Positions 2,755 to 37,242 of a DNA stretch of 64,000 nucleotides are shown here, one piece after another. This DNA comes from a virus (Duplodnaviria; Heunggongvirae; Uroviricota; Caudoviricetes). The translations under genes and the position numbers were made by a program. Where the stretch lies: IMG/VR virus record IMGVR_UViG_3300045988_003495. One strand, 5' to 3'. Below the pieces are notes generated by a model. That model saw only the letters and a list, made by a program, of their open reading frames with translations. It searched no databases and was not told the origin of the DNA. Position 1 is the stretch's first letter. Every line of letters starts with the position of its first letter.

Positions 2755-3312
2755 ATGAATTACGAACTGATATATAATGCAATTATTAAGAAGGCACATT
2801 CTGAAAGGGGTGTGCCTCTTACATACTACAAATGTCAAGGTAAGGGTTATGAAAGACACCATATCATACCAGTATGTCTAGGTGGCGATAAAATTAGTGG
2901 AGATAATATTGCTTTACTTACACCTAGAGAGCATTATATAGCTCATAAATTACTGGTTAAGATGTATCCAAACAATCATAAGTTATGGTTTGCATGGAAC
3001 AGGTTAGCTCATGATGGCCTAGATAGGAAAATATCATCCAGAGACTATGAAAAGGTAAGGGCTTTGAACTCGAAAGCTCTATCTATTGTGAATAAAGGTA
3101 GGGTTTTCACTGAAGAACATCGAAGACGATTAGGAGAATCTCAAATAGGCAATACAAAATCAAAAGGTTGTAAAAGGTCTATAGAAACAAGGAAGAAGAT
3201 GTCAGAAGCCGGAAAAAAGCCAAAGAAAAAGAAAACTTGCCCTCATTGTGGTATGACTGGTGGTGCTGGTAACATGACTCGATACCATTTTGACAATTGT
3301 AAGGAAAAATAA
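2755..3312 (+). CDS. HNH homing endonuclease (free-standing)
   Basis: ERHHIIPVCLGGDKISGDNIALLTPREHYIAHK HNH-type motif; basic C-terminal tail ending in CPHCG. ORF track start 2704 overlaps nrdD; in-frame ATG at 2755 just after the nrdD stop is the likelier start. Confidence 0.6.
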   Translation: MNYELIYNAIIKKAHSERGVPLTYYKCQGKGYERHHIIPVCLGGDKISGDNIALLTPREHYIAHKLLVKMYPNNHKLWFAWNRLAHDGLDRKISSRDYEKVRALNSKALSIVNKGRVFTEEHRRRLGESQIGNTKSKGCKRSIETRKKMSEAGKKPKKKKTCPHCGMTGGAGNMTRYHFDNCKEK

Positions 3313-10413: not shown

Positions 10414-12780
10414 ATGCGCATGGTAAACGACCACGCAGAAGTGATTAAAAGTTCAACTTCTTTAGAGACGTCTCAAGCACAGATTACAATGACACCTGAG
10501 ATGTTCAGCCTTTTGAGTTCTGGTGTATATACCTTTAAAGAAAGGGCAGTGATTCGTGAACTGTCATGTAACGCAGTAGATGCTCAGAAAGAAGCTGGAA
10601 AAGAGAACATCCCATTCCATGTGCATTTACCTACTCGTTTTGAGCCTTACTTCGAAGTTCGTGATTTTGGAACTGGATTGACTCATGATAAAGTTATGAG
10701 TTTGTACCTAAACTATGGAGCTTCTACGAAGAATGACTCTAATGACTACATTGGTGCAATGGGTATCGGCTCAAAGTCACCATTTGCAATTGCTCAGTCA
10801 TTCACAGTATCTAGTTATGTTGACGGTGTTGTTAATAAGTACTCTGTTTATCTTGAGAATGGTATCCCTCAAGTAACTAAGCTGACAACTAACCAAACAA
10901 AAGAACCTAATGGTTTAGCTGTACGTGTGGCAGTTGCTGACCACCGTATCTCAAAGTTCTTTGAAGAAGCTGGGAATGTGTACTCATACTTCACTGTAAA
11001 ACCAGAAAGTAATATTGAGTACGACGATGTATTAGCAGATATGAACGTAATTGCCCGTGAAGAAGGTGTTTATGATGCCATGATTCATAAGCACAGCTGG
11101 CGTTCTAGTGATAACAGGACAGAGTTTAATGTGGTGATGGGTAACATTGCCTATCCAGTGAACATGGAAGCGTTACTTGGTGATGATTTCTTCAAAGTCT
11201 TGCCAGAGTTTTTCCGTAGGAGCGTAGACCTTGTAAACATCTACATGCCTATTGGTTCAGTTGCTATTGCAGCTTCTCGTGAAGCATTGCAGATGAATGA
11301 CACGACAAAAAATGTTATCATTGAGGCTACTAAAAAGATAACTGAAGCCATTACAAAGGATGTTATCAAGAAAGTTAATAGCCAACCTACACTCATGGAT
11401 GCTGCACAGGCTTATGCTGAGTTACGTTTGAACTCACGAGAGATGTTTAATGCTGTGTGTCCAAAGCTAGAGTGGGGTGGCGTTAAGCTTGATTCTCTGG
11501 AAGAAGAATTGCTAAACATTCGTCGTGGAATTATCTACGCAGAAGACGGCTCAGTCATTTACGAACGTGACGGTAAAGGTAATATTAAGGTTGATAGGAA
11601 CGGGAACAATATCCCTAAAGTAGATTATCTTTATGACCCAGTTGCTTATGTCAAGTTTAACTCTTTAGAGAGTAAGATTCGTGCAACAGCACTATCCTAC
11701 ACTCAAGAGGCGAGCATGTTCAACATCTTTGGTGCAATGCGCAAAAGCCAGATTGGACAGTTTTTGTTCGTGATTAATGACCGTCGAAATAAAAATGGCA
11801 CTGAGAAGACTGTTGGGCGTAACCAAATCTTGCGTGGTGCATGTCGAGACTATGCAAGTGAGTCTAGTCTGTTTCACAGATACAATGGTATTGTCTTTGT
11901 ATTCTCGACTGAAAAAGAGTTAGATGACTTAATCAATCTGCACAAACTTGATAAAAGTTTGTTAAAGATTGTGAAAATGTCTGATAAGGAGCACCATTAC
12001 CAGCGTAAAGAAGCTGTAAGAGGTGTTGTAAAACTCTGGAAAGCTGTCCCAGAAGAAGGTGTAGCTTCCTATAAAGAGGTTTCAGAAGACTTTGATACAA
12101 TTGAAGAGCCTCAGCTTTACATTAAGGCAGTTGGTGACACAGTTGATGGCGAATGTTTTTGCTCATCTCCAGAAGATGTAGCCAAGTCAGTTGCTAATGT
12201 TACAGGGAAGACAGTCTATGTTTTCCGAAAAGCAAATTGGAAAAAGATACCAGAAGACTGGATTGAAGTAGATGAGAAACTCTTGAACGATAGCTTAACT
12301 GATGTTCATTGGATTAATCATAACAGGTATATGACACGTATCTATATGAATGGTGTCCTTGACCTTACAAGCAGTTGGATTATTGCCAGAAACTTTACGT
12401 TCAATAACAGGAAGATTTCTCGTGGCTATTGCTATTCACTGGATACAAACAAAACTATCTTCCTAGAAGGTAATGAAGAGGCTGTAGAGGCAATGTTTGG
12501 TAAAATCCAGTATGTTGCTGCACCATTTGCATACACTTACACTATTAGTGTGTTGAAAACTTTGAAAGATTGTCTTGACAACGATACAAAGCTTTACAAG
12601 AAAATTAAGAAAGCTGGTGACCGTATGGTTATTAAGGTGACAAACTACCTTTCAAAAAGAAAACAAGAAAACTTCTTGCTTTCCCATTTAGATTGGAATA
12701 AAGTGTCACCCATCGAAGTGAGTAAGTTCTTAGGTTTTGATGTGAAGTGTGTTCCAGAAGGGACTACAATTTACGATTAA
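10414..12780 (+). CDS. rIIA: rIIA-like protein (GHKL ATPase-like N-terminus)
   Basis: 788 aa; Bergerat-fold-like motifs (RELSCNAVDA, VRDFGTGL, GAMGIGSKS); followed by a second large ORF as in rIIA/rIIB pairs. Confidence 0.55.
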   Translation: MRMVNDHAEVIKSSTSLETSQAQITMTPEMFSLLSSGVYTFKERAVIRELSCNAVDAQKEAGKENIPFHVHLPTRFEPYFEVRDFGTGLTHDKVMSLYLNYGASTKNDSNDYIGAMGIGSKSPFAIAQSFTVSSYVDGVVNKYSVYLENGIPQVTKLTTNQTKEPNGLAVRVAVADHRISKFFEEAGNVYSYFTVKPESNIEYDDVLADMNVIAREEGVYDAMIHKHSWRSSDNRTEFNVVMGNIAYPVNMEALLGDDFFKVLPEFFRRSVDLVNIYMPIGSVAIAASREALQMNDTTKNVIIEATKKITEAITKDVIKKVNSQPTLMDAAQAYAELRLNSREMFNAVCPKLEWGGVKLDSLEEELLNIRRGIIYAEDGSVIYERDGKGNIKVDRNGNNIPKVDYLYDPVAYVKFNSLESKIRATALSYTQEASMFNIFGAMRKSQIGQFLFVINDRRNKNGTEKTVGRNQILRGACRDYASESSLFHRYNGIVFVFSTEKELDDLINLHKLDKSLLKIVKMSDKEHHYQRKEAVRGVVKLWKAVPEEGVASYKEVSEDFDTIEEPQLYIKAVGDTVDGECFCSSPEDVAKSVANVTGKTVYVFRKANWKKIPEDWIEVDEKLLNDSLTDVHWINHNRYMTRIYMNGVLDLTSSWIIARNFTFNNRKISRGYCYSLDTNKTIFLEGNEEAVEAMFGKIQYVAAPFAYTYTISVLKTLKDCLDNDTKLYKKIKKAGDRMVIKVTNYLSKRKQENFLLSHLDWNKVSPIEVSKFLGFDVKCVPEGTTIYD

Positions 12781-12786
12781 AACGTT

Positions 12787-12815
12787 TGACAAGGGGCTTT
12801 GAAGCCCCTTAGAAT
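12787..12815 (+). promoter_or_regulatory. sigma70-like promoter with hairpin in spacer (or terminator/promoter overlap)
   Basis: TTGACA, 17-nt spacer aggggctttgaagcccc (dyad), then TTAGAAT. Confidence 0.35.
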
Positions 12816-12859
12816 ATCCTCACAAAATGATTTATTAACTAACAAGAGAGAGTAATAAG

Positions 12860-13969
12860 ATGACTACTAAAACTAAAGCACAGATTGACGCAGAAATTTA
12901 CAAACTGGTTAAAGAAGGTAAGCTGACTAAAACAGCTATTGCACAGAAATTTAATACTTCAACCCGTTCAGTCGGTCGTGCTGTAGAGCGTCATGAAGCA
13001 ACATTAAAAGGGAATAAGAAGGTAACTTCTACACCAGCTACGAAGACTTTGAAGCAAGTTGCTAAGACCTTTAAAAAGAAAGCTGACAAACCAGTTGAAA
13101 AGGTTGTTAAAGATTCTGTACAGAAAGCTCCAGTAAATAAACTGCACGAAGCTATGCAGAAAGATGACAAGATTGAGTACATGATTACTGGTGACTCTGT
13201 AATTATGACTTACGGTTCAGAATCTGAAATTGTTGAGTCTACTCATCCGAACTATCAAGAGATTGTAGTTCATGTTGTGAAAGGTGAGTTCAAGAAAGCC
13301 TTTGAACTGATGAACATTCGTAAGTCTATCGAAAACTTCACGCAGGGAGCTATCACAATCAAAGGTGATAAGCTATTCTACGGTGCTGTTGAGATGCGTT
13401 CTACTCTGGTTGACCGTATACTTCACATGATGAAGACTGGTGATAAAGGTTTTGAACGACTTGTAATGTTCTTCGAAAAACTGATGGAAAACCCATCTAA
13501 AGATTCTGTAGAACAACTTTGGGGATTCATATCTCACCTTGATGTTGAAATTGATGAAGAAGGCTACATCATTGGTTGGAAGAAAGTCTCTACTCGTGAA
13601 GGCAAGCTGGTTGACTCCCGCACCTGCAAAGTACCTAATGATTTGGGTAACATTGTAGAAATGCCACGTTGGATGGTTGATAATAACCGTAACGTGACTT
13701 GCTCTCAAGGTCTTCACGTTGGTGCTTGGGATTATGTTCGTTACTTCTCAGGTGATACAATTCTGAAGGTTCGTGTCCATCCACGAGACGTTGTATCCGT
13801 ACCAACTGATTACAACGATATGAAGATGCGCTCGTCTCGTTATGAAGTTGCAGCAATCGTTGATAATCAACGTAAAGTACTGAAAGCATGGGATGGCAAG
13901 ACTGAAGCTTTGCATGTCATCGTTGGCACTGCTGGTGAACTTATCTCTCAGCGTAAACGTGAAATCTAA
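12860..13969 (+). CDS. rIIB-like protein (assigned by position and size)
   Basis: 369 aa ORF directly after the rIIA-like gene; no motif recognised by eye. Confidence 0.4.
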   Translation: MTTKTKAQIDAEIYKLVKEGKLTKTAIAQKFNTSTRSVGRAVERHEATLKGNKKVTSTPATKTLKQVAKTFKKKADKPVEKVVKDSVQKAPVNKLHEAMQKDDKIEYMITGDSVIMTYGSESEIVESTHPNYQEIVVHVVKGEFKKAFELMNIRKSIENFTQGAITIKGDKLFYGAVEMRSTLVDRILHMMKTGDKGFERLVMFFEKLMENPSKDSVEQLWGFISHLDVEIDEEGYIIGWKKVSTREGKLVDSRTCKVPNDLGNIVEMPRWMVDNNRNVTCSQGLHVGAWDYVRYFSGDTILKVRVHPRDVVSVPTDYNDMKMRSSRYEVAAIVDNQRKVLKAWDGKTEALHVIVGTAGELISQRKREI

Positions 13970-13985: not shown

Positions 13986-14010
13986 AGGCTGCTTCGGCGG
14001 CCTTTTTTAT
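13986..14010 (+). terminator. intrinsic terminator
   Basis: ggctgc-ttcg-gcggcc stem followed by tttttt. Confidence 0.55.
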
Positions 14011-14038
14011 TTGTATTTTGTGCAGAGTGCTGTATAAT
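14011..14038 (+). promoter_or_regulatory. sigma70-like promoter
   Basis: TTGTAT, 16-nt spacer, perfect TATAAT at 14033-14038; spacer contains GTGCAG. Confidence 0.45.
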
Positions 14039-17138: not shown

Positions 17139-17339
17139 ATGGCTGACTTCTGCAAAGACTGTTCTATCGAAATGTTCGGACGTGATACAGGTGACTTAAA
17201 AGGTCTCGTCACTGAAGATGACTTTAAAGCTGGTTATGCGATTCCAGTAATCTGTGAAGGCTGTGGGTGTATCTGGGTAGACCACGAAGGGCAACGTGTA
17301 AAGCCTTCAGAAGATAAAGAATCTTGGGAGAGATGTTAA
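17139..17339 (+). CDS. small Cys-rich (zinc-binding?) protein
   Basis: 66 aa; CKDC...CEGCGC cysteine pairs. Confidence 0.35.
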   Translation: MADFCKDCSIEMFGRDTGDLKGLVTEDDFKAGYAIPVICEGCGCIWVDHEGQRVKPSEDKESWERC

Positions 17340-18125
17340 ATGGGTATTGTAAAAATCATCAAAGGTGATATCTTTGACGCCTTTGATAAAGGTAAGTTTG
17401 ACATCATTGGTCATGGTTGTAACTGTATGAATTTAATGGGTGCAGGTATTGCAGCAACTATTTCTAAGCGTTATCCAAAAGTGTATGATACTGACACAGA
17501 AGTTTACCTGTTTGCAGGTGGCATTCGTCACAAACCCTGTGAAAATTTACTAGGTAATTTCTCTGTAGCACGTTTAAAACAAGGCCGTATAGCTAACCTT
17601 TACACCCAACTTCATACTGGTAAAGATGCCCGATACAGTGCTTTAGAGTCATCCTTGAAACAGCTTAACAGATACTGTGAAGTTAACCAGTTGAAGAAAG
17701 TTGGTCTACCTATGATTGGTGCAGGTATCGGTGGACTTGACCCTCAAGCTGTCACAGTTATCATTAATCAGGTGATGAAGAGTGTAGATGTTTATCTGTA
17801 TGTCTATGAAGCAAAAATGTATAATGAGTTACACTCAGGTTGGAAAAACTACTGTGAACCAGAATACTTTGCAGGTGTAGTTGTGTTCACAGATAACGCA
17901 GTTACCCTCTTCAGACGAAGAAAAGGTAAGATACATCAAAGTAACCCTCCGGTTGAAAAGATGTCTCTAAGTAACGCTCTAGTTACCCACCTGTCGAAGA
18001 GCAATCACAGAATTGCAGTAACATTTGGCAGTGATGCAGATGCTTATATCTATGCAAGAACTGATGAGGATATTGAGTTAATCCTCTCTTCACCAGAACT
18101 TACCTTCTTAGACGCAAAGAACTAA
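17340..18125 (+). CDS. macro-domain protein (ADP-ribose binding/processing) with C-terminal extension
   Basis: 261 aa; canonical macro signatures GDIFDAF...DIIGHGCNC and MGAGIAATIS in the N-terminal 60 aa. Confidence 0.7.
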   Translation: MGIVKIIKGDIFDAFDKGKFDIIGHGCNCMNLMGAGIAATISKRYPKVYDTDTEVYLFAGGIRHKPCENLLGNFSVARLKQGRIANLYTQLHTGKDARYSALESSLKQLNRYCEVNQLKKVGLPMIGAGIGGLDPQAVTVIINQVMKSVDVYLYVYEAKMYNELHSGWKNYCEPEYFAGVVVFTDNAVTLFRRRKGKIHQSNPPVEKMSLSNALVTHLSKSNHRIAVTFGSDADAYIYARTDEDIELILSSPELTFLDAKN

Positions 18126-18187
18126 GAAACTTCGTAGTATATTCACAATAGACTAAGCCTTTCTTATCTGGTAAATTTTTCAGGTAA

Positions 18188-18400
18188 GGAGGGCTTTTTC
18201 ATTTCAGATTTGTGCAGGTAGAGTTCTGTAGAGAAATCTATAGAGAAAATTTTGAACTCCAAAGAGAAAATTCATTTTCAAACTGTGCAGGTAATCTCCA
18301 AAGGGTTTTTTCATTTTCAAAACGTGCAGAGAAAAATCAGGTCGGGCAAGAAAAATCATTTTAGAATTGTGCAGGTAGGTGGGGGTAGGTGGGACTGTCG
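18188..18400. repeat. four direct repeats (iteron-like) sharing core tCATTTtcAaAnTGTGCAGGTA, plus tandem gtaggtggg x2
   Basis: Copies near 18200, 18272, 18312 and 18353, spaced about 40-70 bp apart, in a 500-bp non-coding gap. Confidence 0.6.
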
Positions 18401-18554
18401 CCATTTCTCACAAGGCTACCACATCTGAAAATAAAAGTCAACAGAAAAATTTGTAGCGGATTGAAAAATAATTCTTGATTGTAGTTCTGTTTTGTGGTAG
18501 TCGCGCGCACCCGTTTCATTACAATTTTTGCAAAAAATATTTTTAAAAATTTTC

Positions 18555-18583
18555 TTGACTCTTTGAACTGGGTTATCTAATAT
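18555..18583 (+). promoter_or_regulatory. sigma70-like early promoter
   Basis: TTGACT (18555-18560), 17-nt spacer, TAATAT (18578-18583); preceded by an AT-rich tract (18520-18554). Confidence 0.55.
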
Positions 18584-18635
18584 TTGCATCAGACGGGGCG
18601 ACAAGCTCAACAACCTTAAACTAGGAGATTCAAAA

Positions 18636-19019
18636 ATGGCATATCGTGCACCTAAATTCATCAACAAAGACAACTTTCGCAACGCACTGGAGAAGTCACT
18701 TGATGAAAATTTTAAAGGTAACATTATCGTTGTTCACGCATTCAATTTTAAGTATGATGTAAACGGGAATAGAATCAACCATTACACGGCAACCATGTTA
18801 GATGGTACACTTTCAAGTGAAAAAGCCGTACTAAATGCACTGGCAGGACGTGGAAAGGTATTAGTAAGATGTGATAAGAGACGTTATCAGGGCGGTGCAT
18901 ATGGTTATGATGATGCTGTTTACCATCTTGAAAATATGGGCTATCAAGTAGAAAAAGCTGGAGCATCACAAATCATCGGCAGTGATGGTTATGTAACTAT
19001 CTTCAAAATTAACAAATAA
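18636..19019 (+). CDS. hypothetical early protein
   Basis: 127 aa; RBS aggagattcaaaaATG shared with the downstream early-gene family. Confidence 0.5.
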   Translation: MAYRAPKFINKDNFRNALEKSLDENFKGNIIVVHAFNFKYDVNGNRINHYTATMLDGTLSSEKAVLNALAGRGKVLVRCDKRRYQGGAYGYDDAVYHLENMGYQVEKAGASQIIGSDGYVTIFKINK

Positions 19020-19031
19020 AGTACTTTACAA

Positions 19032-19060
19032 GGGGCTTATAGTTCGATAAAGTAAGCCCC
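19032..19060 (+). repeat. conserved 5'-leader hairpin (ggggcttatagttcgataaagtaagcccc), member of a dispersed early-gene cassette family
   Basis: Identical copies at 21273-21301 and 22406-22434; close variants near 19413 and 22070; a second hairpin family (ggggagggaatgaccttcccc) near 20743, 21796, 23365 and 23925. Confidence 0.6.
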
Positions 19061-19105
19061 AGATAAAGAGCTTTACTACTCAATCCTAAATTGGAGAACT
19101 TAAAA

Positions 19106-19399
19106 ATGGCTATTATCAAAAACGTTGTAATTACTGCAAAGACTCGTGATGACGCTCGCGTTATGGCTAAAAAGTTATGCGGTAAAGTGGTTGACAACGG
19201 AAAACAATCTGCTGTAAGGTGGGGCGTGAAGGTTGATAAACAGTTGAAGTTAAAAAATTCACCGATAAACCTTTTTACATGTGTAAACACTATCGGGAAG
19301 ACAAATGTATACACGAAAAAGGCATACATTAGACGCGTAGCATTAACATCCCCCATTCGTACAATGAGAAGTTATGCAAAGCTGAAAATTAACAAATAA
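19106..19399 (+). CDS. hypothetical early protein
   Basis: ORF track begins at TTG 19091; ATG 19106 has the conserved RBS ttggagaacttaaaaATG. Confidence 0.5.
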   Translation: MAIIKNVVITAKTRDDARVMAKKLCGKVVDNGKQSAVRWGVKVDKQLKLKNSPINLFTCVNTIGKTNVYTKKAYIRRVALTSPIRTMRSYAKLKINK

Positions 19400-19484
19400 A
19401 GTACTTTACAGGGGGCTTAAAAGTTGATATCTTAAGCCCCAGATAAAGAGCTTTACTACTCAATCCTAAATTGGAGATTCAAAA

Positions 19485-19997
19485 ATGAAAACTGTAGACG
19501 CTACCTTTGAAGTTGTAAAAGAAAAATTCACTATTATTTATGAAGCTGTCAATTGCTTTGAAGCAAGCCATAATCTTGATAATTGGAAGTTTACAGATGA
19601 CCATCAAGGCGGCGTGACTGTTAAAAATCCTAACTGTCAGCGTAATGAATTTAAATATGCAATCCCTTTACATTACAGCCTTAAACAGCTTTCAAGTGAC
19701 TATGCAAAACAAGGCCGTGAGAATCCATCGAAAGAGGCTTACACGAGCTTACAGAAAGAACTAGAAAGAGATTTAGAGGCTTCAGAGTATAACCTTGCCG
19801 CGAAAGTTGTGGATGCAAACGGTAGCACGGTTTTAGAAAGTTTTTATCTTGGTTATGCTTTCGATTGGTGCTATCGTGACGGCGATGATTTAGAGGATAG
19901 ACTAAAAGAAGAGGTGAACAACGCAGACGCAGAATCTGAAGTATTAGAACGTTTGGAATCGTTGAAAGACTCAGTGATGAATATCTTTAAGAACTAA
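19485..19997 (+). CDS. hypothetical early protein
   Basis: 170 aa, conserved leader and RBS upstream. Confidence 0.5.
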   Translation: MKTVDATFEVVKEKFTIIYEAVNCFEASHNLDNWKFTDDHQGGVTVKNPNCQRNEFKYAIPLHYSLKQLSSDYAKQGRENPSKEAYTSLQKELERDLEASEYNLAAKVVDANGSTVLESFYLGYAFDWCYRDGDDLEDRLKEEVNNADAESEVLERLESLKDSVMNIFKN

Positions 19998-20089
19998 ATA
20001 GATTCCTTTACACGGGGTTATCAAGCTGGTAGGATAGCCCCAGATAAAGAGATTTATCAAATAAAGCCCTTAAACTAGGAGATTCTAAA

Positions 20090-20386
20090 ATGAAATTATC
20101 AAATAAAGTCCGTGAAAATTTAAGCAAGTTACTTAATAAAATTGATTTCATTGAAACATCAAGGAATAGTCATGATGTTATGGAATGGTTACACGGAAAA
20201 ATCAAAGGCCGTCGTGTAGTGATTTGCTTATGGAACAGTTGCAGGGAGTATAAAAAACCTGTATTGCAAGTCAATATTTATGATGATACTTTTAAAAGTC
20301 CTGTAAAATCTAAAAGCGATTTATTAGAATCCTATGAGATAACTGTAAATGGCAAAGTATCACGTAAAGAGGAAACACCATGTTAA
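20090..20386 (+). CDS. hypothetical early protein
   Basis: 98 aa, conserved RBS. Confidence 0.45.
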   Translation: MKLSNKVRENLSKLLNKIDFIETSRNSHDVMEWLHGKIKGRRVVICLWNSCREYKKPVLQVNIYDDTFKSPVKSKSDLLESYEITVNGKVSRKEETPC

Positions 20387-20712
20387 TGACTGGTATCACT
20401 GCAATCATTGCCATTTTCGCTCTATATAAGGCATATAAAGCCTATAATCTAGCAAATAAGGCAACCACCCAGCAGGTTAGCAATAGCCTTGTAGAAAGAT
20501 TTCTAGGGCGTTTAAGTGATGAGCAAATAAAGCGGCTAGAGATGAGCTTCAGATATAAAGCGAAAACCTATCAGATAAGTGACATCTTCAAAGATAATTT
20601 TCAGTTAGTTGATGATTATAATTCTCTGATAAATGCTTTAAATGTCAGTGACTTAAAAGACTACTACGCTGTAATTGTTCAAGAATTGAGCAAACGAAAA
20701 CAAAACTGTTGA
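20380..20712 (+). CDS. hypothetical early protein (N-terminal TM)
   Basis: 110 aa; hydrophobic N-terminus (ITAIIAIFALY). Confidence 0.45.
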   Translation: MLMTGITAIIAIFALYKAYKAYNLANKATTQQVSNSLVERFLGRLSDEQIKRLEMSFRYKAKTYQISDIFKDNFQLVDDYNSLINALNVSDLKDYYAVIVQELSKRKQNC

Positions 20713-20737
20713 CACTGGTTTTTAGATAGATTAAATT
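20709..20737 (+). promoter_or_regulatory. sigma70-like early promoter
   Basis: TTGACA, 17-nt spacer, TAAATT; near-identical copy at 21762-21790. Confidence 0.5.
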
Positions 20738-20802
20738 ACACATCAACGGGGAGGGAATGACCTTCCCCACTAAATAAAGCCCTTAAACTAGGAGATTCAA
20801 AA

Positions 20803-20961
20803 ATGTTTTGTGCAGGTGATAAAGTTGTCTGGAATGATATAGATGACGGTTTATGTACGAAAGTTGTTGTTATCTTAGAAATTGATTATATCACTGGTGT
20901 TGCAACTGTAGCAGATAATGATATAATCTTTGATGTCTTAATTAGTGAACTGTCAAAATAA
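20803..20961 (+). CDS. hypothetical early protein (52 aa, below track cut-off)
   Basis: Translated manually: MFCAGDKVVWNDIDDGLCTKVVVILEIDYITGVATVADNDIIFDVLISELSK; preceded by conserved leader hairpin and RBS. Confidence 0.4.
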   Translation: MFCAGDKVVWNDIDDGLCTKVVVILEIDYITGVATVADNDIIFDVLISELSK

Positions 20962-20987
20962 AATCCTTAAACTAGGAGATTCTGAAA

Positions 20988-21260
20988 ATGTATACTACTA
21001 ACAACGGTCGCACTTTAAACGTAACCCTGCGTCACTATGTGAATGGTGTGATGCACTTTGATGATTTACAAGCTGAGCAACACATCTTAAATTGGCAAGT
21101 TGCAGGACTCCAAAAAACTGCTACAGGATACGGGAAAAAGATTCCAACCAGTTGGAAAGTATACTACAAAGGACGTTTGCGCAGAATTTATCAAGACGTG
21201 CAAAGCAATAGCGCATCGAGTTACATTATAGTAAAAGGCAAAAAACTGCATTTAATGTAA
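20988..21260 (+). CDS. hypothetical early protein
   Basis: 90 aa, conserved RBS. Confidence 0.45.
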   Translation: MYTTNNGRTLNVTLRHYVNGVMHFDDLQAEQHILNWQVAGLQKTATGYGKKIPTSWKVYYKGRLRRIYQDVQSNSASSYIIVKGKKLHLM

Positions 21261-21346
21261 AGCACTTTACAAGGGGCTTATAGTTCGATAAAGTAAGCCC
21301 CAGATAAAGAGCTTTACTACTCAATCCTAAATTGGAGAACTTAAAA

Positions 21347-21751
21347 ATGGCTATTAATAACCGTGAATTATCAATTTTAAAAGCACGTTTGACCGTTAAC
21401 CGGATTAATGTTATCACGTCATCAGCACCAGATGAAACACTGCAAAACATTATTGGGAAGATTCAAAGTGTTATCTTAGACGTTGAAAGCGTAAAAAACT
21501 CATTGACTGACGTTGCAGCAGGTATCACGCTAGACGGTGCACAACATGAAATGGCCGACATGTTAGGCAAATCTAAGGTAATGAATAAAGAGTTAGATTT
21601 GAAAATGTTCCGATTTGCTGTTAAAGTGTGGTTATCTGTCGAGTATGATGCTAACTTTGCAATCGCTGACTTTTTTGCCACTTGGTTGCAGCGTAATTTG
21701 GCAAATCACGATTTCCGTAATATCTGCGATGCAATTTATGCAGAACTATAA
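21347..21751 (+). CDS. hypothetical early protein
   Basis: ORF track begins at TTG 21332; ATG 21347 carries the conserved RBS. Confidence 0.5.
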   Translation: MAINNRELSILKARLTVNRINVITSSAPDETLQNIIGKIQSVILDVESVKNSLTDVAAGITLDGAQHEMADMLGKSKVMNKELDLKMFRFAVKVWLSVEYDANFAIADFFATWLQRNLANHDFRNICDAIYAEL

Positions 21752-21761
21752 AAAATTTTTG

Positions 21762-21790
21762 TTGACACTGATTTTTAGATAGGCTAAATT
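21762..21790 (+). promoter_or_regulatory. sigma70-like early promoter
   Basis: TTGACA, 17-nt spacer, TAAATT, followed by leader hairpin. Confidence 0.5.
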
Positions 21791-21853
21791 ACACATCAAC
21801 GGGGAGGGAATGACCTTCCCCACTAAATAAAGTCCTAAACTGGAGATTCAAAA

Positions 21854-22057
21854 ATGGCTATTATTAATGGTTTAACCATTGAAACTACACACATCAAAGA
21901 TATCAAAGTTGGTGATATAGTCCTTTCCCACGGCGTAGAAAAAACTGTCACTGCAAAGGATATCAAAGAGGATTCTTTCATGGGTAGGACTCTCTTCGGT
22001 GATTCTTATTGCTTAGGCTATCTTGCAGTTTTAAAAGTTGTCAAAAATAACAAATAA
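21854..22057 (+). CDS. hypothetical early protein
   Basis: 67 aa, conserved RBS. Confidence 0.45.
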   Translation: MAIINGLTIETTHIKDIKVGDIVLSHGVEKTVTAKDIKEDSFMGRTLFGDSYCLGYLAVLKVVKNNK

Positions 22058-22144
22058 AGTACTTTACAAGGGGCTTAAAAGTTGATAACTTAAGCCCCAG
22101 ATAAAGAACTTTACCACTAAATCCTAAACTGGAGATTCTAAAAA

Positions 22145-22393
22145 ATGATGAACTACTTTAACATTCCCGATACCTGTAGATTATTGACACAAGAAGAAAA
22201 TTTGGGTAAACCTTTCATTTACCACATGCCAGATAACACGGCAAAAACTTATAGTTACAATGTTAACCGTTTCACCGCATACGCTGCAAAGAACGGCTAT
22301 AGGTTGGTTACTCAAAAAGTAATGCTGGTTACAACTGCTGGCGAGATTCCTACAGTTGCAGTCAAACTAGTTTTCTCAAAGAAAGTTAAATAA
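22145..22393 (+). CDS. hypothetical early protein
   Basis: 82 aa, conserved RBS. Confidence 0.45.
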   Translation: MMNYFNIPDTCRLLTQEENLGKPFIYHMPDNTAKTYSYNVNRFTAYAAKNGYRLVTQKVMLVTTAGEIPTVAVKLVFSKKVK

Positions 22394-22480
22394 AGCACTT
22401 TACAAGGGGCTTATAGTTCGATAAAGTAAGCCCCAGATAAAGAGCTTTACCACTCAATCCTTAAACTAGGAGATTCAAAA

Positions 22481-23023
22481 ATGAAATGTTATCACGGAAC
22501 TACTCAAGAAAATTTCCTCAACCTGATTAATAACGGTGATAAACCATCAGGCGCATGGAATTGTTCGGATATGGACGGCAATTTTTACGTGTATCCAGAA
22601 AATAAAATCTATGGCGACGATGATGAAGAGATAACATCGGAGGGCATTCAGCAAGCTCTAGGGAACGCCACTATTACGGCGGCCTTCCAGATGAAAACCC
22701 AAAATATTGTTATCTTAGAACTCGATATTCCAGATGATGAGCTAAATGATGATTATTCTTGTGATAATATGTCGAGTGTAGCAAGTTTTACAGAGTACTT
22801 TGATGTAAACTGGATTAAAAAGGTCTATACAACAGAGTTTAACGCTATGTATTCGCCTTTTTGTCTTCCTTCACTGGATAACCCAAATATGAACTATCTT
22901 GATGAGACATTAGAACTACTTGCTAAAAGTGTTCAACAGTCGGACAGTATTCAGGTTTTTTGTGACATCATAGATACACTGACAGGAAACATTGCAGAAG
23001 AGGATTTAAAGAGCTTTTTCTAA
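22481..23023 (+). CDS. hypothetical early protein (acidic)
   Basis: 180 aa, conserved RBS. Confidence 0.5.
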   Translation: MKCYHGTTQENFLNLINNGDKPSGAWNCSDMDGNFYVYPENKIYGDDDEEITSEGIQQALGNATITAAFQMKTQNIVILELDIPDDELNDDYSCDNMSSVASFTEYFDVNWIKKVYTTEFNAMYSPFCLPSLDNPNMNYLDETLELLAKSVQQSDSIQVFCDIIDTLTGNIAEEDLKSFF

Positions 23024-23054
23024 AAACCTATGCAATCACCTTATAGACACTAAT

Positions 23055-23078
23055 CAGCCCCTTGTAGGGGCTTTTAGA
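23055..23078 (+). terminator. intrinsic terminator-like hairpin
   Basis: agcccct-tgt-aggggct followed by ttt. Confidence 0.45.
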
Positions 23079-23089
23079 GGGCTTAAATC

Positions 23090-23323
23090 ATGCTTACAAC
23101 CGTTTACCTCATCCTTTCTATTTGTAACGGTCATTCATGCGATTTTAAAGGGCTTGAAGAGTTTACAGGAAGTAAAGAAAATGCTATTCAAGTTTGCCAG
23201 ATAGCAAGGAAAGACTATCCCGCTAGTGATGATATACAATGTTACTTTAAGACAGAAGATGACGACGGAATCTATTTCGACAGTGTTGACGGTAAATATG
23301 AAATTATCATTGAAAAAGACTAG
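23090..23323 (+). CDS. hypothetical early protein
   Basis: 77 aa ORF. Confidence 0.45.
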   Translation: MLTTVYLILSICNGHSCDFKGLEEFTGSKENAIQVCQIARKDYPASDDIQCYFKTEDDDGIYFDSVDGKYEIIIEKD

Positions 23324-23415
23324 ACAAGCCCGATAAAAGTCTGTAAATTGTCAATCAACGGGGAGGGAATGACCTTCCCCACTAAGTAAAGTCCTTAAAC
23401 TAGGAGATTCTAAAA

Positions 23416-23757
23416 ATGGCTTATGTAACCGTAATTACCGATAAAGCTGGCGCATCTTGGTCAACTCAGGTTAGTGATAAGATGTCACCTATGCAGTGCC
23501 TAAAATACTTTGAACAGTGGAACAAAGGCGAGGACACAAGCCCCTTTCAAGTGATGCAGATTATCCATGTAGATAACGAAGGGAATAAAACGGTTTTAAA
23601 TAGTGAGTACTACGCAAGCCGTTTTGAAACGAGAAGTAAAACAATGAAGCTTTTACGTGAATCCGGTTATGCCCATATCGCCGCGTTAATCTGGGATGAC
23701 CTGCTAAAAAACCAACGTATCAGCTATGTAAAACCTGAAAAAATATTCATCAGTTAA
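23416..23757 (+). CDS. hypothetical early protein
   Basis: 113 aa, conserved leader/RBS. Confidence 0.5.
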   Translation: MAYVTVITDKAGASWSTQVSDKMSPMQCLKYFEQWNKGEDTSPFQVMQIIHVDNEGNKTVLNSEYYASRFETRSKTMKLLRESGYAHIAALIWDDLLKNQRISYVKPEKIFIS

Positions 23758-23979
23758 TCAATAACTTACAAAAAACTTTTAAAAAAGTGTTGACAATACC
23801 CCTTGACATTGGTAACTTTGTTCGAGGGGGTTTATCTAAAAGGGATTCACTTAAAAGATTCTTTATAGATAAGCTCAAAAAATTACTTGCAATCAACTAT
23901 CAAAACAAGTAAATTACTAATCAACGGGAAGGCAATAACCTCCCCACTAAATAAAACCCTTAAACTAGGAGATTCAAAA

Positions 23980-24228
23980 ATGGCAACTATCCGCGCTACT
24001 GTCAATGCCTATGGCTGTTATACTCTGGACGTTAAATTCGATATTGGTGGAACTGATGAGTGTTTTTCATTAGTGAAGACAGTTATCAAACAAGTTATTC
24101 CAGATTATAACCCTACTGATGACTTCTGGAAAGATGCTGTAAAAGAGGCATTAAACGACGAGCATCACTATCATTACTGGGGTGACTTGATTGTTTCCCT
24201 GTACTACAATAAACAAGGTTACAACTAA
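23980..24228 (+). CDS. hypothetical early protein
   Basis: ORF track 23887-24228; ATG 23980 follows the conserved RBS ggagattcaaaaATG. Confidence 0.45.
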   Translation: MATIRATVNAYGCYTLDVKFDIGGTDECFSLVKTVIKQVIPDYNPTDDFWKDAVKEALNDEHHYHYWGDLIVSLYYNKQGYN

Positions 24229-24266
24229 TCGACGCAGCGGGGCTAAATAGCCCCAGATACCTCAAC

Positions 24267-24292
24267 AGCCCCTATTTAAAGGGGCTTTTTTA
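24267..24292 (+). terminator. intrinsic terminator closing the rightward early region
   Basis: agcccc-tatttaaa-ggggct followed by tttttt; a second hairpin sits at 24239-24254. Confidence 0.6.
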
Positions 24293-24636
24293 CGTCTATT
24301 GAATCCTTATACAATCCCTTTCCTTTCCTTTCCAGAATCTTACTAGACCTTAAAAGCAATAACTCTATAGTCTACTCTATAACCTCTTATCAAATCAACT
24401 TAAATATAAGCCCATAACCCGAAAGGGAAGGGCAACCGTTTAAACGCTCTATAAAGCTCTATAACAGCCTTATCAACCTAACTTAAGGGATTGCATTAAC
24501 TCACCCTTAAAAGCCCTTTATAAAGCTTCTCAGAGACTTAAAAGAATCTTATAAGGGTGTAAGCTTTATCGTCTCGTTAGTTATCTTGTGAATATCTAAA
24601 AAGGGCTTGTTAGTGTCTTAAAAGTATGTTATAGGG

Positions 24637-24698
24637 GCTATAAAGTTACGTAAAAGAGGCTATAAAGTTACGTAAAAGAGGCTATAAAGTTACGTAAA
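24637..24698. repeat. tandem direct repeat, 22-bp unit gctataaagttacgtaaaagag x about 2.8
   Basis: Units at 24637-24658 and 24659-24680, partial third at 24681-24698. Confidence 0.8.
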
Positions 24699-24759
24699 TA
24701 CTAGCCCCCTTAACATTCTCTTAACAATTTCTTAACAATCCCTACATAGTTATGCTTTT

Positions 24760-25800
24760 AAGGCACTTGTTAGCAACTTGTTAGCCCCTTGTTAAATCTC
24801 TGTTAAGACCACGTAAAAGCCTTGTAAGAGTCTTTGACATAGCCTTAAAAGCTCCTGTAAAGCCCTATAAAGAGCTATCTGTACAGTTGGGGTGTAACTA
24901 CTAGGAAGAGACTTAAAAGGGGCTATACAGAGCTATAGAGAGCTTTTAAGAGGTATGTTTAAGGAATCACTAAGAAAGGAAAGGGAACGATAAGAAAAGA
25001 GATAGTGACCATGTTAATAGCTTGTTAAAAAGATTAAACACTTGTTAGAGACTTGTTAATTATCTTAACAAAATAACTCTTAAAAATTAACTTGTTAGCT
25101 CTTGTTAGTCATCTGTTAAGAGACTATAAAGACCATGTATCGACTGTTAAGAACTTGTTACAACCTTGTTAGTTCTGTTAAGAGTCTGTTAAGACCTCTG
25201 AAGAGATGTTAAGAAGGTGTAAGGACTGTTAAGAGATTGTTAAGGATATTTTAAAATTTTGCAAAGTACTTGTAAGGGAGCTGTTAAGGGCTACCAAGCA
25301 GATATACACCCTAATCAGATATTTTTCAGTTCCTTCAAAGACCCTAAAAAATGACTTGACAGTCTTATTTTATAAAAATTTTAAAATTCTGAATAATTAC
25401 CTAGACAGTCTTTTAAAAATACAGGTAGAAACAGGCTTATAAGATACCTTGTTAATACCGTGTTAGACCTTGTGAGATAAGGTCTGTAAAGATATTCCTG
25501 TTAAGTTTGTTAAAACAGTCTATATAGAGGCTTAGTAACACCTAGTGAACACCTATAGAGAGTGTCATAGCTTACATAGAGATTAAGAGGTGTATAGGAG
25601 CTTCTAAGAGTGTGTAGAGAGATGGTTAAGATGATTGTATAGGTTGTTTAGAAGGCTTGTTAGAAGAGTGTTTAGATGGCTATTTAGAAGGGCTATACAG
25701 AGGGCTATTAAGACCACTAGATAGTTACTAAGATACTATATAGTACTATATAACTATATAGAGAGTAAGATTAAGAAGATTGTTAAGAAGGATAGATATT
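24760..25800. repeat. dense array of short motifs TGTTA(A/G) (cTTGTTAG / cTGTTAAG), about 30 copies
   Basis: For example cttgttagcaacttgttagccccttgttaaatctctgttaag and gactgttaagaacttgttacaaccttgttagttctgttaagagtctgttaagacc; no ORF of 60 aa or more in any frame. Confidence 0.7.
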
Positions 25801-25859
25801 TTATTCACATATGATGGTGACCCAGAGGTTGGGACAACCGATAAAATTTTATAAAAATT

Positions 25860-25883
25860 AAAAAGCCCCCAATTAAGGAGGCT
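25860..25883 (-). terminator. intrinsic terminator for the leftward gene block
   Basis: On the minus strand: agcctcc-ttaatt-gggggct followed by ttttt, just after the stop of 25895-26518. Confidence 0.45.
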
Positions 25884-25894
25884 CTTAAGATATT

Positions 25895-26518
25895 TTAAAT
25901 CAGTGTTTCCAGAACTGTTTTCAATGATGACTTAGTTGTCTGGTAAAAATGAGTGAACCCATTATTGTTATCGAATATCTGCATCATGATATCATCTCCC
26001 TTGATTGGGTACACTCGGATATCATAGTGAAACCCATTAAAGACAGCAGAACCATTACAGAACACACTAAAGTCAGCCACTGAGATATACTCTTCATGTC
26101 CTGTGATTTTTATACAAACACCTTTACTCGGTCTCTTAGGGTTGATATCTTCCATCACAGACATACTCTGTCCACCAAGAGATATCATAGTGACCACTTT
26201 ACGGTTCTTCTGTTTAAAGTACATCTTAACTTTCTGCAAAGTGTCTTCATAGAACGGATAAGACTTCTCTACAAATATTCCTTCAAGTGGCTCTTTACCA
26301 TTTTCAACTTCTCTGGTATGTCGTACTGCAAAGATAATTTGTTGGAACCAGTCAAGATTTTCTTCGGAGAGTGCTTCTCGAACATCACTCCAGTCAAGGA
26401 CTAGGTAGTTACCTTCAACATCTTTTAAGTTATCTTTTTCCATATCTATCACACCATTATCGTAAAACTTGATATTCTGGTACTGCGAATTTATTACTAT
26501 TGTTCTTGATGAGGTCAT
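25895..26518 (-). CDS. hypothetical protein
   Basis: 207 aa ORF; overlaps the upstream gene by about 60 nt so the true start may be an internal Met. Confidence 0.4.
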   Translation of the reverse strand: MTSSRTIVINSQYQNIKFYDNGVIDMEKDNLKDVEGNYLVLDWSDVREALSEENLDWFQQIIFAVRHTREVENGKEPLEGIFVEKSYPFYEDTLQKVKMYFKQKNRKVVTMISLGGQSMSVMEDINPKRPSKGVCIKITGHEEYISVADFSVFCNGSAVFNGFHYDIRVYPIKGDDIMMQIFDNNNGFTHFYQTTKSSLKTVLETLI

Positions 26519-35848: not shown

Positions 35849-35924
35849 TCTCTGTTTAGCTCAGCTTGGTAGAGCGTTCCGTTTGGGGCGGTAAGGCCGG
35901 AGGTTCAATTCCTCCAACAGAGAC
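35849..35924 (+). tRNA. tRNA-Pro (anticodon TGG)
   Basis: Manual fold: acceptor tctctgt/acagaga, T-arm ggagg-ttcaatt-cctcc, anticodon loop tttgggg. Confidence 0.65.
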
Positions 35925-35933
35925 CAAATTAAT

Positions 35934-36008
35934 GTTCCAGTAGACAAAATGGTATAGTCACCACTCTTTCAAAGTGGATATTTGAGGGTTCAAATCCCTT
36001 CTGGAACG
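35934..36008 (+). tRNA. tRNA-Glu (anticodon TTC)
   Basis: Acceptor gttccag/ctggaac, T-loop ttcaaat, anticodon stem-loop ccact-ctttcaa-agtgg; CCA encoded. Confidence 0.65.
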
Positions 36009-36103
36009 CCAGTTTTGACAGAAGACCAATTACAGCAAACTTAATCTTATTCATCTGAAGGTAAATCGGACAAAGAAGAGATTTGGTCTGGTCATTAAGA
36101 ATT

Positions 36104-36176
36104 GCGGGTATAGAGAAAGGGCGTCTCACATGTCTCATTAGCATGGTATCGGCAGGTTCGACTCCTGCACCCGCCT
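36104..36176 (+). tRNA. tRNA with CAT anticodon (Met or Ile2)
   Basis: T-arm gcagg-ttcgact-cctgc; anticodon loop ctcatta; acceptor pairing imperfect at the 5' end. Confidence 0.45.
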
Positions 36177-36256
36177 CCAAATTTACAGAAGACCGTATGC
36201 AGCAACAAACTACTTTTTGCGGATAAAAGAAAAAACACGGTCTGGCAATGTATTAA

Positions 36257-36330
36257 GGTTAGGAAGCACATAAGGTATGTGCGGTCGCCTGTTAAGCGAA
36301 TGGCACAGGGTTCGAATCCCTGACTAACCG
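36257..36330 (+). tRNA. tRNA-Asn (anticodon GTT)
   Basis: Anticodon loop ctgttaa; T-arm caggg-ttcgaat-ccctg; CCA encoded. Confidence 0.65.
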
Positions 36331-36342
36331 CCAAATTTAAAT

Positions 36343-36427
36343 GTGTCGTTATCCCGTAGATGGTAGCGGTGGGGACTGTAAATCCCTTGTCATTGAGACT
36401 CGGTAGGTTCGACTCCTACACGGCACA
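36343..36427 (+). tRNA. tRNA-Tyr (anticodon GTA), long variable arm
   Basis: 85 nt; anticodon stem-loop gggga-ctgtaaa-tccct; T-arm gtagg-ttcgact-cctac. Confidence 0.65.
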
Positions 36428-36452
36428 CCAACACTTAGCGAGATACTTAGTT

Positions 36453-36854
36453 ATGAGAGATGAAGTATACAAATCACAACTTGGTATGAGTTTGGGAACT
36501 GCACAAAACAGACTAGTAAAAGATTTGCTATTCGATTTTATATGTAAGACAAATCAAAATAGATGTTTTCAGTGCGGAAAAGAAATGACTAGGGATGATT
36601 TCTCTATCGAGCATAAGACTCCGTGGAGACACAAAGATAATGCAAAAGAACTTTTCTTTTCACTAGATAACATTTCTTATAGCCACCTGCGTTGCAACAT
36701 GAAAGCAGCCAGACCAGCACAGATTTATGATAGAAAGCCTAAGCCAATTAAACACGGCACTGCACACAGCTACTCTAAAGGTTGCAGATGTGATGAGTGT
36801 AGGCTGGCTAAGAATGCTGAGGGTAGGAAGCACTATAACCCCAGAAAGGCGTAG
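36453..36854 (+). CDS. HNH homing endonuclease inside the tRNA cluster
   Basis: CFQCGKEM...FSIEHKTPW...SHLRCNMKAA...CRCDEC; ORF track start 36360 overlaps tRNA-Tyr, in-frame ATG at 36453 is the likelier start. Confidence 0.6.
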   Translation: MRDEVYKSQLGMSLGTAQNRLVKDLLFDFICKTNQNRCFQCGKEMTRDDFSIEHKTPWRHKDNAKELFFSLDNISYSHLRCNMKAARPAQIYDRKPKPIKHGTAHSYSKGCRCDECRLAKNAEGRKHYNPRKA

Positions 36855-36886
36855 GAAGAAGTATTTAAGAAATGGCACATAGTTTT

Positions 36887-36959
36887 GGGGTATTAGTTTA
36901 GACGGTGAAAATACGGGATTATCTCTCCTGAGCCGCGAGTTCGATTCTCACATACCTCG
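36887..36959 (+). tRNA. tRNA with atypical anticodon loop (ttatctc, apparent anticodon ATC; Asp-like?)
   Basis: Good acceptor (ggggtat/atacctc), D-arm and T-arm (gcgag-ttcgatt-ctcac), but A34 and T37 are unusual; Asp is otherwise absent from the cluster. Confidence 0.4.
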
Positions 36960-37110
36960 CCAATTTTGAGAGGGCTATTTAGCCCCTCCCTTAAAGAGTT
37001 CTTACGAGTATCCTTTAAAGGAGCAGAAGACCAAATACAGCAAGTTACTTAAAATTTCAAGCCAATTCAATTTTGAAAAATTTAAAACTTGGTCTGGCTC
37101 AACAAATTTA

Positions 37111-37242
37111 CAGAAGACCGTTTACAGCAAAACTTAAACAATCTATTTCTCGGTAAAGAAAAGGCGAAGGTTCGATTCCTTCACTCGGCAGATGTCGAGT
37201 TGGTGTAATGGTAGCACTTAAGATGATAAACAACGGTCTGGT
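37111..37242 (+). ncRNA. circularly permuted tRNA-like module enclosed by an AGACCGTT/AACGGTCT helix (candidate Y-RNA-like RNA)
   Basis: Order along the strand: T-arm gaagg-ttcgatt-ccttc (37166-37182), acceptor-like hairpin actcggc-agat-gtcgagt (37183-37200), tg, D-arm-like gtgtaatggtagcac (37203-37217); 8-bp closing helix 37115-37122 with 37232-37239. Confidence 0.35.

Follow-up and report, generated by a model that had tools for sequence, protein, structure and literature searches.

A conserved repeat array between a terminator and a promoter cluster in Felix O1-type phages: a candidate control region of the terminal early genes

Introduction

What role does a repeat-bearing non-coding gap play beside the terminal early genes of a Felix O1-type phage? 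The gap in question occupies positions 18126-18635 (510 bp) of a 64,000-nucleotide stretch of viral DNA (IMG/VR record IMGVR_UViG_3300045988_003495, the whole of which is called the window below). The window is a Felixounavirus genome (Felix O1-type, Ounavirinae), with 98% identity to Felixounavirus LF110P4 and about 93% to many Escherichia coli and Salmonella phages over positions 17300-19100, and the gap separates a macro-domain gene from an orphan open reading frame (ORF) of 127 aa. A reading made from the letters of the window only (the sequence-only reading) had described four spaced direct repeats, a tandem G-rich repeat, an AT-rich tract and a sigma-70 promoter in the gap, and had proposed either an iteron-type replication origin or a set of operator sites for early transcription.

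Felix O1 is a classical phage for typing and biocontrol of Salmonella, and its relatives are common in therapy cocktails. Earlier annotators of the corresponding gap in relatives marked a terminator only, plus a promoter in one record. The Felix O1 genome paper states that the temporal regulation of transcription is unknown; it lists exact repeats of at least 24 bp only, and the array is not mentioned. Among the papers covered by a literature search for origins, repeats and the unit sequence in this phage group, none described the element or a Felix O1 replication origin.

Comparison of the gap with its relatives strongly supports the repeats as putative sequence-specific binding sites that function in an early control region, since they are conserved in about six Ounavirinae lineages, have a fixed copy number and spacing, occur at a single place in the genome and consist of a unit that appears to co-evolve with a partner. 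This premise, common to both proposals of the sequence-only reading, has held up; an origin was not established, while operator sites fit the association of the array with a terminator and a promoter cluster. We give a probability of roughly 40% to the reading that the gap is a control region at the head of the small early genes that make up the terminal block in Ounavirinae genomes, in which the array would act as an operator or architectural element and not as an origin.

Results

Four long bipartite repeat units

The four copies of about 24 bp are present, and start at or within a few bases of the positions first reported. Each is bipartite, A/T5-TCATTT-N6-7-GTGCAGGTA, and all have the same orientation:

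18199-18220, plus strand: repeat unit 1, TCATTTCAGATTTGTGCAGGTA, 35 bits; its A/T tract is the T-run of the terminator described below
18272-18293, plus strand: repeat unit 2, TCATTTTCAAACTGTGCAGGTA, 33 bits, 73 nt after unit 1
18311-18332, plus strand: repeat unit 3, TCATTTTCAAAACGTGCAGAGA, 31 bits, 39 nt after unit 2
18356-18377, plus strand: repeat unit 4, TCATTTTAGAATTGTGCAGGTA, 32 bits, 45 nt after unit 3

At up to three mismatches TCATTTTNRAANTGTGCAGGTA matched the plus strand four times, against 0.01 matches expected, and nowhere else in the 64 kb. A weight matrix made from 12 units was scanned over the window and over the complete 87.1-kb genome of phage Bas63; the units scored 31-35 bits in the window and 27-36 bits in Bas63, and the next-best site 15 bits in both. 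Since the unit is unique in an 87-kb genome it is neither a promoter class nor a regulon-wide operator, and both candidates were rejected. The GTGCAG core that had been noted in a promoter spacer near 14011-14038, and likened to the repeats, does exist (14002-14029, after the rIIB terminator), but its kinship to the array found no support: it scores 15 bits, a level at which a few matches are expected by chance, and was not counted as part of the element. The motif AAAAATWWTTCTTGAYT was not enriched, and no palindrome was seen when the Felix-type units were judged by eye.

Outside the phage group, a scan of viral contigs with one unit as query returned mostly chance matches. Bacterial genomes gave scattered single matches in unrelated taxa and no arrays among the matches listed (at least 120), E. 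coli genomes gave no unit match in a search sensitive to long matches only, and plasmids gave matches at chance level only.

Conservation of the array across the Ounavirinae

A blastn search recovered the gap from SUSP-type phages as well as from Mooglevirus, whereas in Kolesnikviruses of Erwinia and Cronobacter the match was limited to the repeat core. The order of parts (terminator, four units in the same direction, G/C-rich block, AT tract, TTGAC-type promoter) is alike in phage Mordin and Erwinia phage M7, and this layout is common to Felixouna-, Moogle-, Susp- and Kolesnikviruses. The fetched loci held 21 distinct arrays, which have four units each except for one truncated locus and one lineage with three units. 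Unit spacing is fixed within a lineage (73/39/45, 75/41/45, 77/39/45 or 37/37/39 nt), and TCATTT and GTGCA are invariant over the 21 arrays.

Two Pectobacterium phages, Arno18 and Wc4, carry four copies of a different, longer unit, GTGTCACATTGCAAAACTCGTTGGAAAAAAGTGCTC, spaced by 89/47/47 nt, with a G-rich block after the last copy. Identity between these two phages is about 98% over the array and the ~300 bp that follow, whereas the stretch just before the array has diverged. A metagenomic contig, L138 (Logan SRR33471206, 86,276 bp), has six copies of a related unit at 12559-12830, spaced by 36/43/43/49/43 nt; a search of 50,697 records of isolated phages gave no nucleotide match to this array. 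The macro-domain gene of L138 ends 1.8 kb before the array, with three genes between, and the array comes directly after a terminator and before paired promoters, and we therefore assign it to the terminator/promoter junction and not to the neighbouring genes. This contig represents an uncultured Ounavirinae-like lineage, and extra ATGTTGCnAnAATGTTAACA repeats follow its array.

All unit types share a GTGC(A/T) core and differ by lineage in the rest, which is expected of a phage-encoded, co-evolving partner rather than of a shared host factor. One type (type B) is found in Pectobacterium phages and another (type A) in phages of Escherichia, Salmonella, Citrobacter, Shigella, Erwinia and Cronobacter. 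Host DnaA boxes were rejected as the identity of the units: an 8/9 match is reached only by the Kolesnikvirus and L138 cores, as compared to 6/9 for the Felix type and 5/9 for Arno18. The reverse complements of the former (CTATGCACA, TTATGCACG and TTATGCACT; Kolesnikvirus locus 1497-1638 and L138 12580-12830) are one mismatch from the DnaA box TTATNCACA, in a single orientation, and the Felix-type core ACCTGCACA is three mismatches from it. Look-alikes of sigma-54 promoters and Fis sites, judged by eye, were set aside, since units that vary from lineage to lineage are not what a shared host factor would require.

An alignment of 19 distinct Felix-, Moogle- and SUSP-type gaps (pairwise identity 64-99.6%) separates constrained from free parts. 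Mean column entropy was 0.10 in a block at 18434-18480, the most conserved part of the gap, 0.22 in the units, 0.36 in the array spacers, 0.53 in the AT tract, 0.60 in the rightward promoter P2 and 0.83 in the G/C-rich block (computed over 18379-18433). Indels are nearly absent from the array spacers, and the G/C-rich block has a single one of 4 nt; the lengths are thus constrained even where the sequence is free to vary.

Terminator, G/C-rich block and promoters around the array

The array is embedded in the following parts of the gap:

18155-18196, plus strand: strong intrinsic terminator found by scanner, a 17-pair stem followed by TTTTT, which ends the gene run from rIIA to the macro-domain gene
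18374-18433, no strand assigned: hypervariable, strand-skewed G/C-rich block, which opens with two copies of GGTAGGTGGG (18374-18393)
18434-18480, no strand assigned: nearly invariant 47-nt block, 39/47 columns invariant in 19 relatives
18441 to 18436 (-35, TTGACT) and 18418 to 18413 (-10, TAGCCT), minus strand: candidate leftward promoter P_L
18475-18480 (TTGATT), with TAGTCG as -10 17 nt on and then a GC-rich stretch (both within 18498-18513), plus strand: candidate promoter P1, from reading of the sequence
18514-18554, plus strand: AT-rich tract with conserved AAATATTTTTAAAA, which abuts the P2 -35 hexamer, where an UP element would lie
18555-18583, plus strand: predicted rightward promoter P2, TTGACT-17-TAATAT (scanner, 9/12 matches)
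18584-18638, plus strand: 5' leader with Shine-Dalgarno AGGAG at 18623-18627 and ATG at 18636

The terminator is annotated at this site in Barry, AYO145A and ASO1A, and its 3' arm is invariant in the 19 relatives. In the window it has no T-run on the minus strand, whereas the terminator upstream of the L138 array scores on both strands.

The tandem repeat that opens the G/C-rich block was confirmed and is the most G-rich 20-mer in the window (14/20 G). Among close relatives the polarity of the block flips: the plus strand is G-rich in the window, Barry and AYO145A and C-rich in ASO1A, SUSP2 and Mordin. A C-rich block is present in about half of the Felix-type relatives and in the representatives of Moogle-, Susp- and Kolesnikviruses. 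The minus strand of the C-rich tract in ASO1A, SUSP2 and Mordin forms a canonical G3 G-quadruplex motif; no such motif was found in the window or in the whole Bas63 genome.

The invariant block carries TTGACT on the minus strand (18441 to 18436) and TTGATT on the plus strand (18475-18480), with 33 AT-rich nt between them, an arrangement that looks like a pair of putative back-to-back promoters. On the left side the Felix-type -10 is weak (TAGCCT in the window, TAAGAG in C-rich variants) and below the scanner threshold, so that a leftward transcript in this phage is a matter of inference. Strong leftward promoters, each paired with a rightward one, are found at the matching position in M7 (TTGACG-18-TATACT) and L138 (TTGACT-16-TATCAT with a TG extension).

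On the right side P1 may be a promoter with a weak sigma-70 -10. The GC-rich stretch after this -10, CGCGCACCCG (CGCGCACCCGTTTCA within 18475-18513), is discriminator-like and resembles CCGCGCCCGTTTCC in L138 (~13036-13095). The P1 promoters of ribosomal RNA operons, which are under stringent control, have a GC-rich discriminator, GCGCCACC, which this stretch resembles. It is shared by distant lineages, and P1 together with P2 has a tandem-promoter layout.

P2 is predicted to be a sigma-70 promoter from its hexamers, spaced within 16-18 nt, its conservation and the gene with a ribosome-binding site downstream. It is annotated as a promoter in ASO1A, and a TTGAC-type rightward promoter is conserved here in the Felix/Moogle/Susp/Kolesnik alignment, in the P0011 lineage and in L138. 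The earlier description of P2 as near-consensus slightly overstated its 9/12 matches, although the promoter itself is present. The AT-rich tract before it is likewise real (89% A+T over 18520-18554), though short at about 40 bp. The 40-bp segment from 18514 is the eighth least stable non-overlapping 40-mer of the window (top 0.1%), and at the 100-bp scale the gap reaches only the 5th percentile of stability.

In Barry, adrianh, LinBro and Bas63 an insertion of about 290 bp lies between P2 and the 127-aa ORF (Barry 2834-3126, against window ~18600-18635). Like a gene cassette, it brings in a 68-aa ORF (Felix01p030-like) along with a second copy of the segment that carries the leader and ribosome-binding site.

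The gap heads a terminal block of small early genes

The genes on either side of the gap are:

17340-18125, plus strand: macro-domain gene, 261 aa, annotated 'phosphatase' (Pfam Macro, residues 25-141)
18636-19019, plus strand: orphan 127-aa ORF, the first of the terminal early block

The array and the promoters bound, on its inner side, a terminal block made up of small orphan genes, which in the window spans 18636-24228 with about 14 small ORFs transcribed towards the genome end. A Pfam scan of ten of these ORFs gave no match. Many of the genes are separated by promoter-like sites (TTTACA/TTGACA-17-TAAAGT/TAAATT), all facing the genome end. In three lineages the array module marks the inner edge of such a block, of 6-9 kb, and in the window the block extends to a convergent non-coding gap that carries the terminal repeat. 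Gene content varies among genera, and the place beside the terminus is kept. The distance from the array to the mapped right physical end is 6.3-6.9 kb, or about 7-8% of the genome; in M7 and Arno18 the terminal non-coding gap is about 6.7 and 8.2 kb, respectively, from the array.

Discussion

A putative operator or architectural array

If the array acts in control, the four sites would be bound by a phage-encoded, sequence-specific DNA-binding protein, probably through two successive major grooves, at TCATTT and GTGCA, whose centres are about one helical turn apart. The bound protein would build a higher-order complex at the terminator/promoter junction and set the activity of the adjacent cluster, that is of P_L to the left and of P1 and P2 to the right. 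In the course of infection such a complex could turn the early block off or raise its expression, and it could also shield the block against read-through from upstream.

In every lineage the array sits between the terminator and the promoter cluster, even when displaced from the macro-domain gene, and clear divergent promoter pairs flank it in M7 and L138. In the PhageMaP study of Bas63, positions ~46,000-66,000 are described as uniformly nonessential. The Bas63 gap (64,064-64,571) lies inside this segment, and bas63_0096 and bas63_0097, pseudo-genes annotated over the array, would have been eligible PhageMaP targets. A modulatory element fits a nonessential segment better than a unique origin does. 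A regulatory role is favoured because the array travels with the promoter cluster, the region seems dispensable in the laboratory, the units are not spaced as iterons are and there is no evident initiator.

Several observations weigh against this interpretation. The units lie 60-280 bp from the promoters without overlapping them, and the distance from array to promoter varies (about 60 bp in the Felix type as opposed to about 165-180 bp in others). Many similar promoter-like sites in the early block are without such units. Classical operators are usually palindromic, and direct repeats are seen more typically in iterons. The leftward promoter of the Felix type is poor in its -10 hexamer and, in some variants, lies within a G-quadruplex motif. 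No regulator was found among the neighbours of the array: the 127-aa ORF and 20 further flanking ORFs have no DNA-binding Pfam domain, and the macro protein misfits as a binder. Finally, the essentiality evidence is indirect, as the PhageMaP text names neither bas63_0096 nor bas63_0097.

The macro protein was considered as binder since no other neighbour is conserved and since it carries an additional C-terminal domain of about 100 aa. A confident structural model (predicted local distance difference test score, pLDDT, 91) shows a small beta domain with no helix-turn-helix, and a cis-encoded binder at the C-terminus was rejected. The L134 lineage keeps Felix-type units at only about 40% macro identity, and L138 has the array and the gene unlinked. 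The first downstream gene was rejected as binder or initiator, as it is not homologous between genera.

Alternative roles

A replication origin is a serious rival, somewhat less probable than the control role. The four units would then be iterons for a phage initiator or helicase loader, with adjacent (especially leftward) transcription activating or priming replication and the AT tract unwinding. An array at a single place, with four to six oriented direct repeats of 22-37 bp and a co-evolving unit, is consistent with this, as are the adjacent tract of very low duplex stability and the promoters on both sides. With the strong leftward promoters of M7 and L138 and the bidirectionally scoring terminator of L138, a non-coding transcription unit would cross the array, and in many variants the would-be leftward RNA strand is G-rich or quadruplex-capable, which would favour R-loops. 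Dispensability is compatible with an origin too, since T4 and T7 tolerate the loss of individual origins. Classical iterons, however, are packed in helical phase at about 22 bp centre to centre, whereas the units here are 36-89 bp apart with no consistent helical phasing and have no similarity to plasmid iteron regions. No initiator-like gene adjoins the array, and the downstream gene is not conserved between genera. An initiator was found neither in the array neighbourhood nor in the annotation of Bas63, the two places covered. The Bas63 replication genes (polymerase, primase/helicase and ligase) lie 24-36 kb from the array in Bas63 coordinates, outside the window, and form a T7-like set; such sets use promoter-type and not iteron-type origins. 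Furthermore, GC skew has no inflection, the AT tract of about 40 bp abuts a -35 hexamer like an UP element, 140 bp from the array, the polarity of the G/C-rich block flips between close relatives, and the array-bearing segment of Bas63 is described as nonessential in the PhageMaP study.

The same leftward promoters also suggest a role at the RNA level, in which a transcript from P_L to the terminator, with four (or six) antisense copies of the unit, would be an unstructured decoy for an RNA-binding protein or a small RNA. The absence of a coding signal on the minus strand, the two-strand score of the L138 terminator and a unit type that may track the host group agree with a decoy. We consider it unlikely, given the weak Felix-type leftward promoter, the window terminator without a minus-strand T-run and the lack of a match in E. 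coli genomes (in the search for long matches). No Rfam match was obtained at gathering or relaxed thresholds, and in the two lineages covered neither strand surpassed its shuffled controls in folding (z -0.84 to +1.33), which leaves a known or stably folded RNA without support; fixed spacing with freely varying spacers also fits a DNA scaffold better. Still less probable is a polar barrier, where bound, oriented sites at the boundary of the early block would pause RNA polymerase, RecBCD, a replication fork or the DNA as it enters the cell. In phage T5, DNA entry stops after 7.9% of the genome at a repeat-rich non-coding site (10.1101/866236). Here the units are co-oriented in every lineage, the array has the distances to the right end and to the terminal gap given above, the intervening small ORFs are transcribed towards the end, and the Kolesnikvirus and L138 cores are close to DnaA boxes. 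Against this, our literature search found no report that DNA of Felix O1-type myoviruses enters stepwise, the gap does not match the T5 site in anatomy (inverted repeats, palindromes and paired DnaA boxes in a 10-kb terminal repeat), and the Felix-type unit agrees with the DnaA box at only 6/9 positions. The specific form of a checkpoint that pauses entry, nuclease or fork once the terminal ~7-8% of the genome is in is, by a small step, the less probable version. Such a checkpoint would let the terminal small early genes be expressed first, and two-step infection, so far known only from T5-like siphoviruses, would occur with unrelated parts in a contractile-tailed subfamily.

Two further readings fail on direct comparison. 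That the gap is a physical genome end, a terminal repeat or a packaging site is suggested by its repeats and by its length of about 500 bp, similar to the 581-608-bp terminal repeats of the genus. Phage Pr103Blw has a 581-bp terminal repeat, PhageTerm-derived and annotated at both record ends, and UAB_Phi87 has been shown experimentally to have fixed ends with a 608-bp repeat (its sequence record, in the version used, is not opened at these ends). However, the Pr103Blw repeat aligns to window 24704-25284, about 6 kb downstream and in a separate 1.67-kb gap (positions 1-1260 of the record match 24704-25942 with 90% identity), which effectively refutes a terminus at the array and reduces its probability to next to nothing. 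A small minus-strand protein with internal repeats is scarcely more credible. A frame of 66-67 codons is open through units 4, 3 and 2 in the Felix type, where the spacings of 39 and 45 nt are multiples of three. There is, however, no codon periodicity (entropy 0.357/0.407/0.363 at codon positions 1/2/3) and no Pfam match, the start codon is not conserved among variants, the units fall in differing frames in Moogle- and Kolesnikviruses, and spacings of 37, 41, 43 and 47 nt elsewhere are not divisible by three; moreover, would-be synonymous third positions within TCATTT and GTGCA do not vary either. The minus-strand ORF was rejected on the tests of frame, start codon and periodicity.

Coding sequences have nevertheless been called across the array in public records: bas63_0096/0097 (MZ501086, 64142-64457), Mordin_126 (KT363872, 8301-8489), phi63_307 LINGLNFE_00143 and, on the plus strand, Arno18_14 (MK290738, 8792-8968). 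The frame, start-codon and periodicity results in Felix-, Moogle- and Kolesnikviruses and the non-triplet spacings in Arno18 indicate that these 'hypothetical proteins' are not genes, and this corrects the public annotation, in which small-protein calls across the array are unsupported.

Relation to known systems

Mini-F ori2 has four 19-bp iterons, RK2 oriV combines iterons with AT-rich and GC-rich segments, the lambda origin has four repeats and an AT tract, and T4 oriE is a further example. The gap resembles iteron origins in its four to six co-oriented direct repeats of at least about 20 bp, present at a single place with AT- and GC-rich segments and promoters nearby, and in a co-varying unit, as iteron sequences co-vary with their initiators. 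It differs in the wide spacing, in having no adjacent or recognisable initiator and in the reported dispensability of the region in Bas63. Like the origin of Lactococcus phage c2 and those of T7 and T4 (oriF, oriG), it has intergenic promoters and repeats, a candidate untranslated transcript and T7-like replisome genes; unlike it, those promoter-type origins have no need for four long, oriented protein-type sites, and the priming transcript is here only a candidate.

Among transcriptional switches, phi29 p4 binds four sites between early and late promoters, and P2 Cox and 186 Apl bind direct-repeat arrays between opposed promoters. The gap shares with these several sites beside opposed or tandem promoters, and with Cox and Apl the direct repeats, but in those systems the promoters are overlapped or closely abutted by the sites, which follow each other at about one to two helical turns; here the corresponding distances are 60-280 bp and 36-89 bp. 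There is also a likeness to the injection-stop signal of T5, which is untranslated, conserved and rich in repeats, lies about 8% from the end, bounds the early genes and is more conserved than the surrounding ORFs (10.1101/866236). That signal has inverted repeats, palindromes and paired consensus DnaA boxes inside the 10-kb terminal repeat (10.1101/866236), whereas the gap has direct repeats only, a poor Felix-type DnaA match and a terminal repeat of about 0.6 kb located elsewhere.

Arrays of protein sites in the control regions or origins of phages are a known kind of element, to which this one belongs. What is unfamiliar is the combination of long, bipartite, widely spaced sites, the first of them fused to a terminator, with a polarity-flipping G/C-rich block and back-to-back promoters. 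The module is the best-defined non-coding element of the subfamily, with parts more conserved than the surrounding genes, and its single copy and seemingly co-evolving unit offer a direct experimental handle.

Other features of the window

The 1.67-kb non-coding gap at 24229-25894 lies between convergent gene blocks and holds the homologue of the Pr103Blw terminal repeat (~24704-25284). Of the 50 YTGTTARR motifs in the window, 18 are clustered at 24720-25787, and the least stable DNA of the window is found around 25.0-25.8 kb, inside the same gap. This gap is probably a packaging and terminus region with its own family of protein sites.

Chi sites (GCTGGTGG) are absent from both strands of the 64-kb window and occur once in Bas63 (87 kb). 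The Arno18 gap has a perfect Chi at locus position 3082, within the conserved GC-rich block and in the orientation that would act on RecBCD coming from the nearer end. Elsewhere in the window, ARAGORN identified 25 transfer RNA genes on the plus strand at 35850-41216, 23 of which reach the Rfam threshold, and 872 bp after the tail-fibre region (62091-62962) are without an ORF of at least 45 aa.

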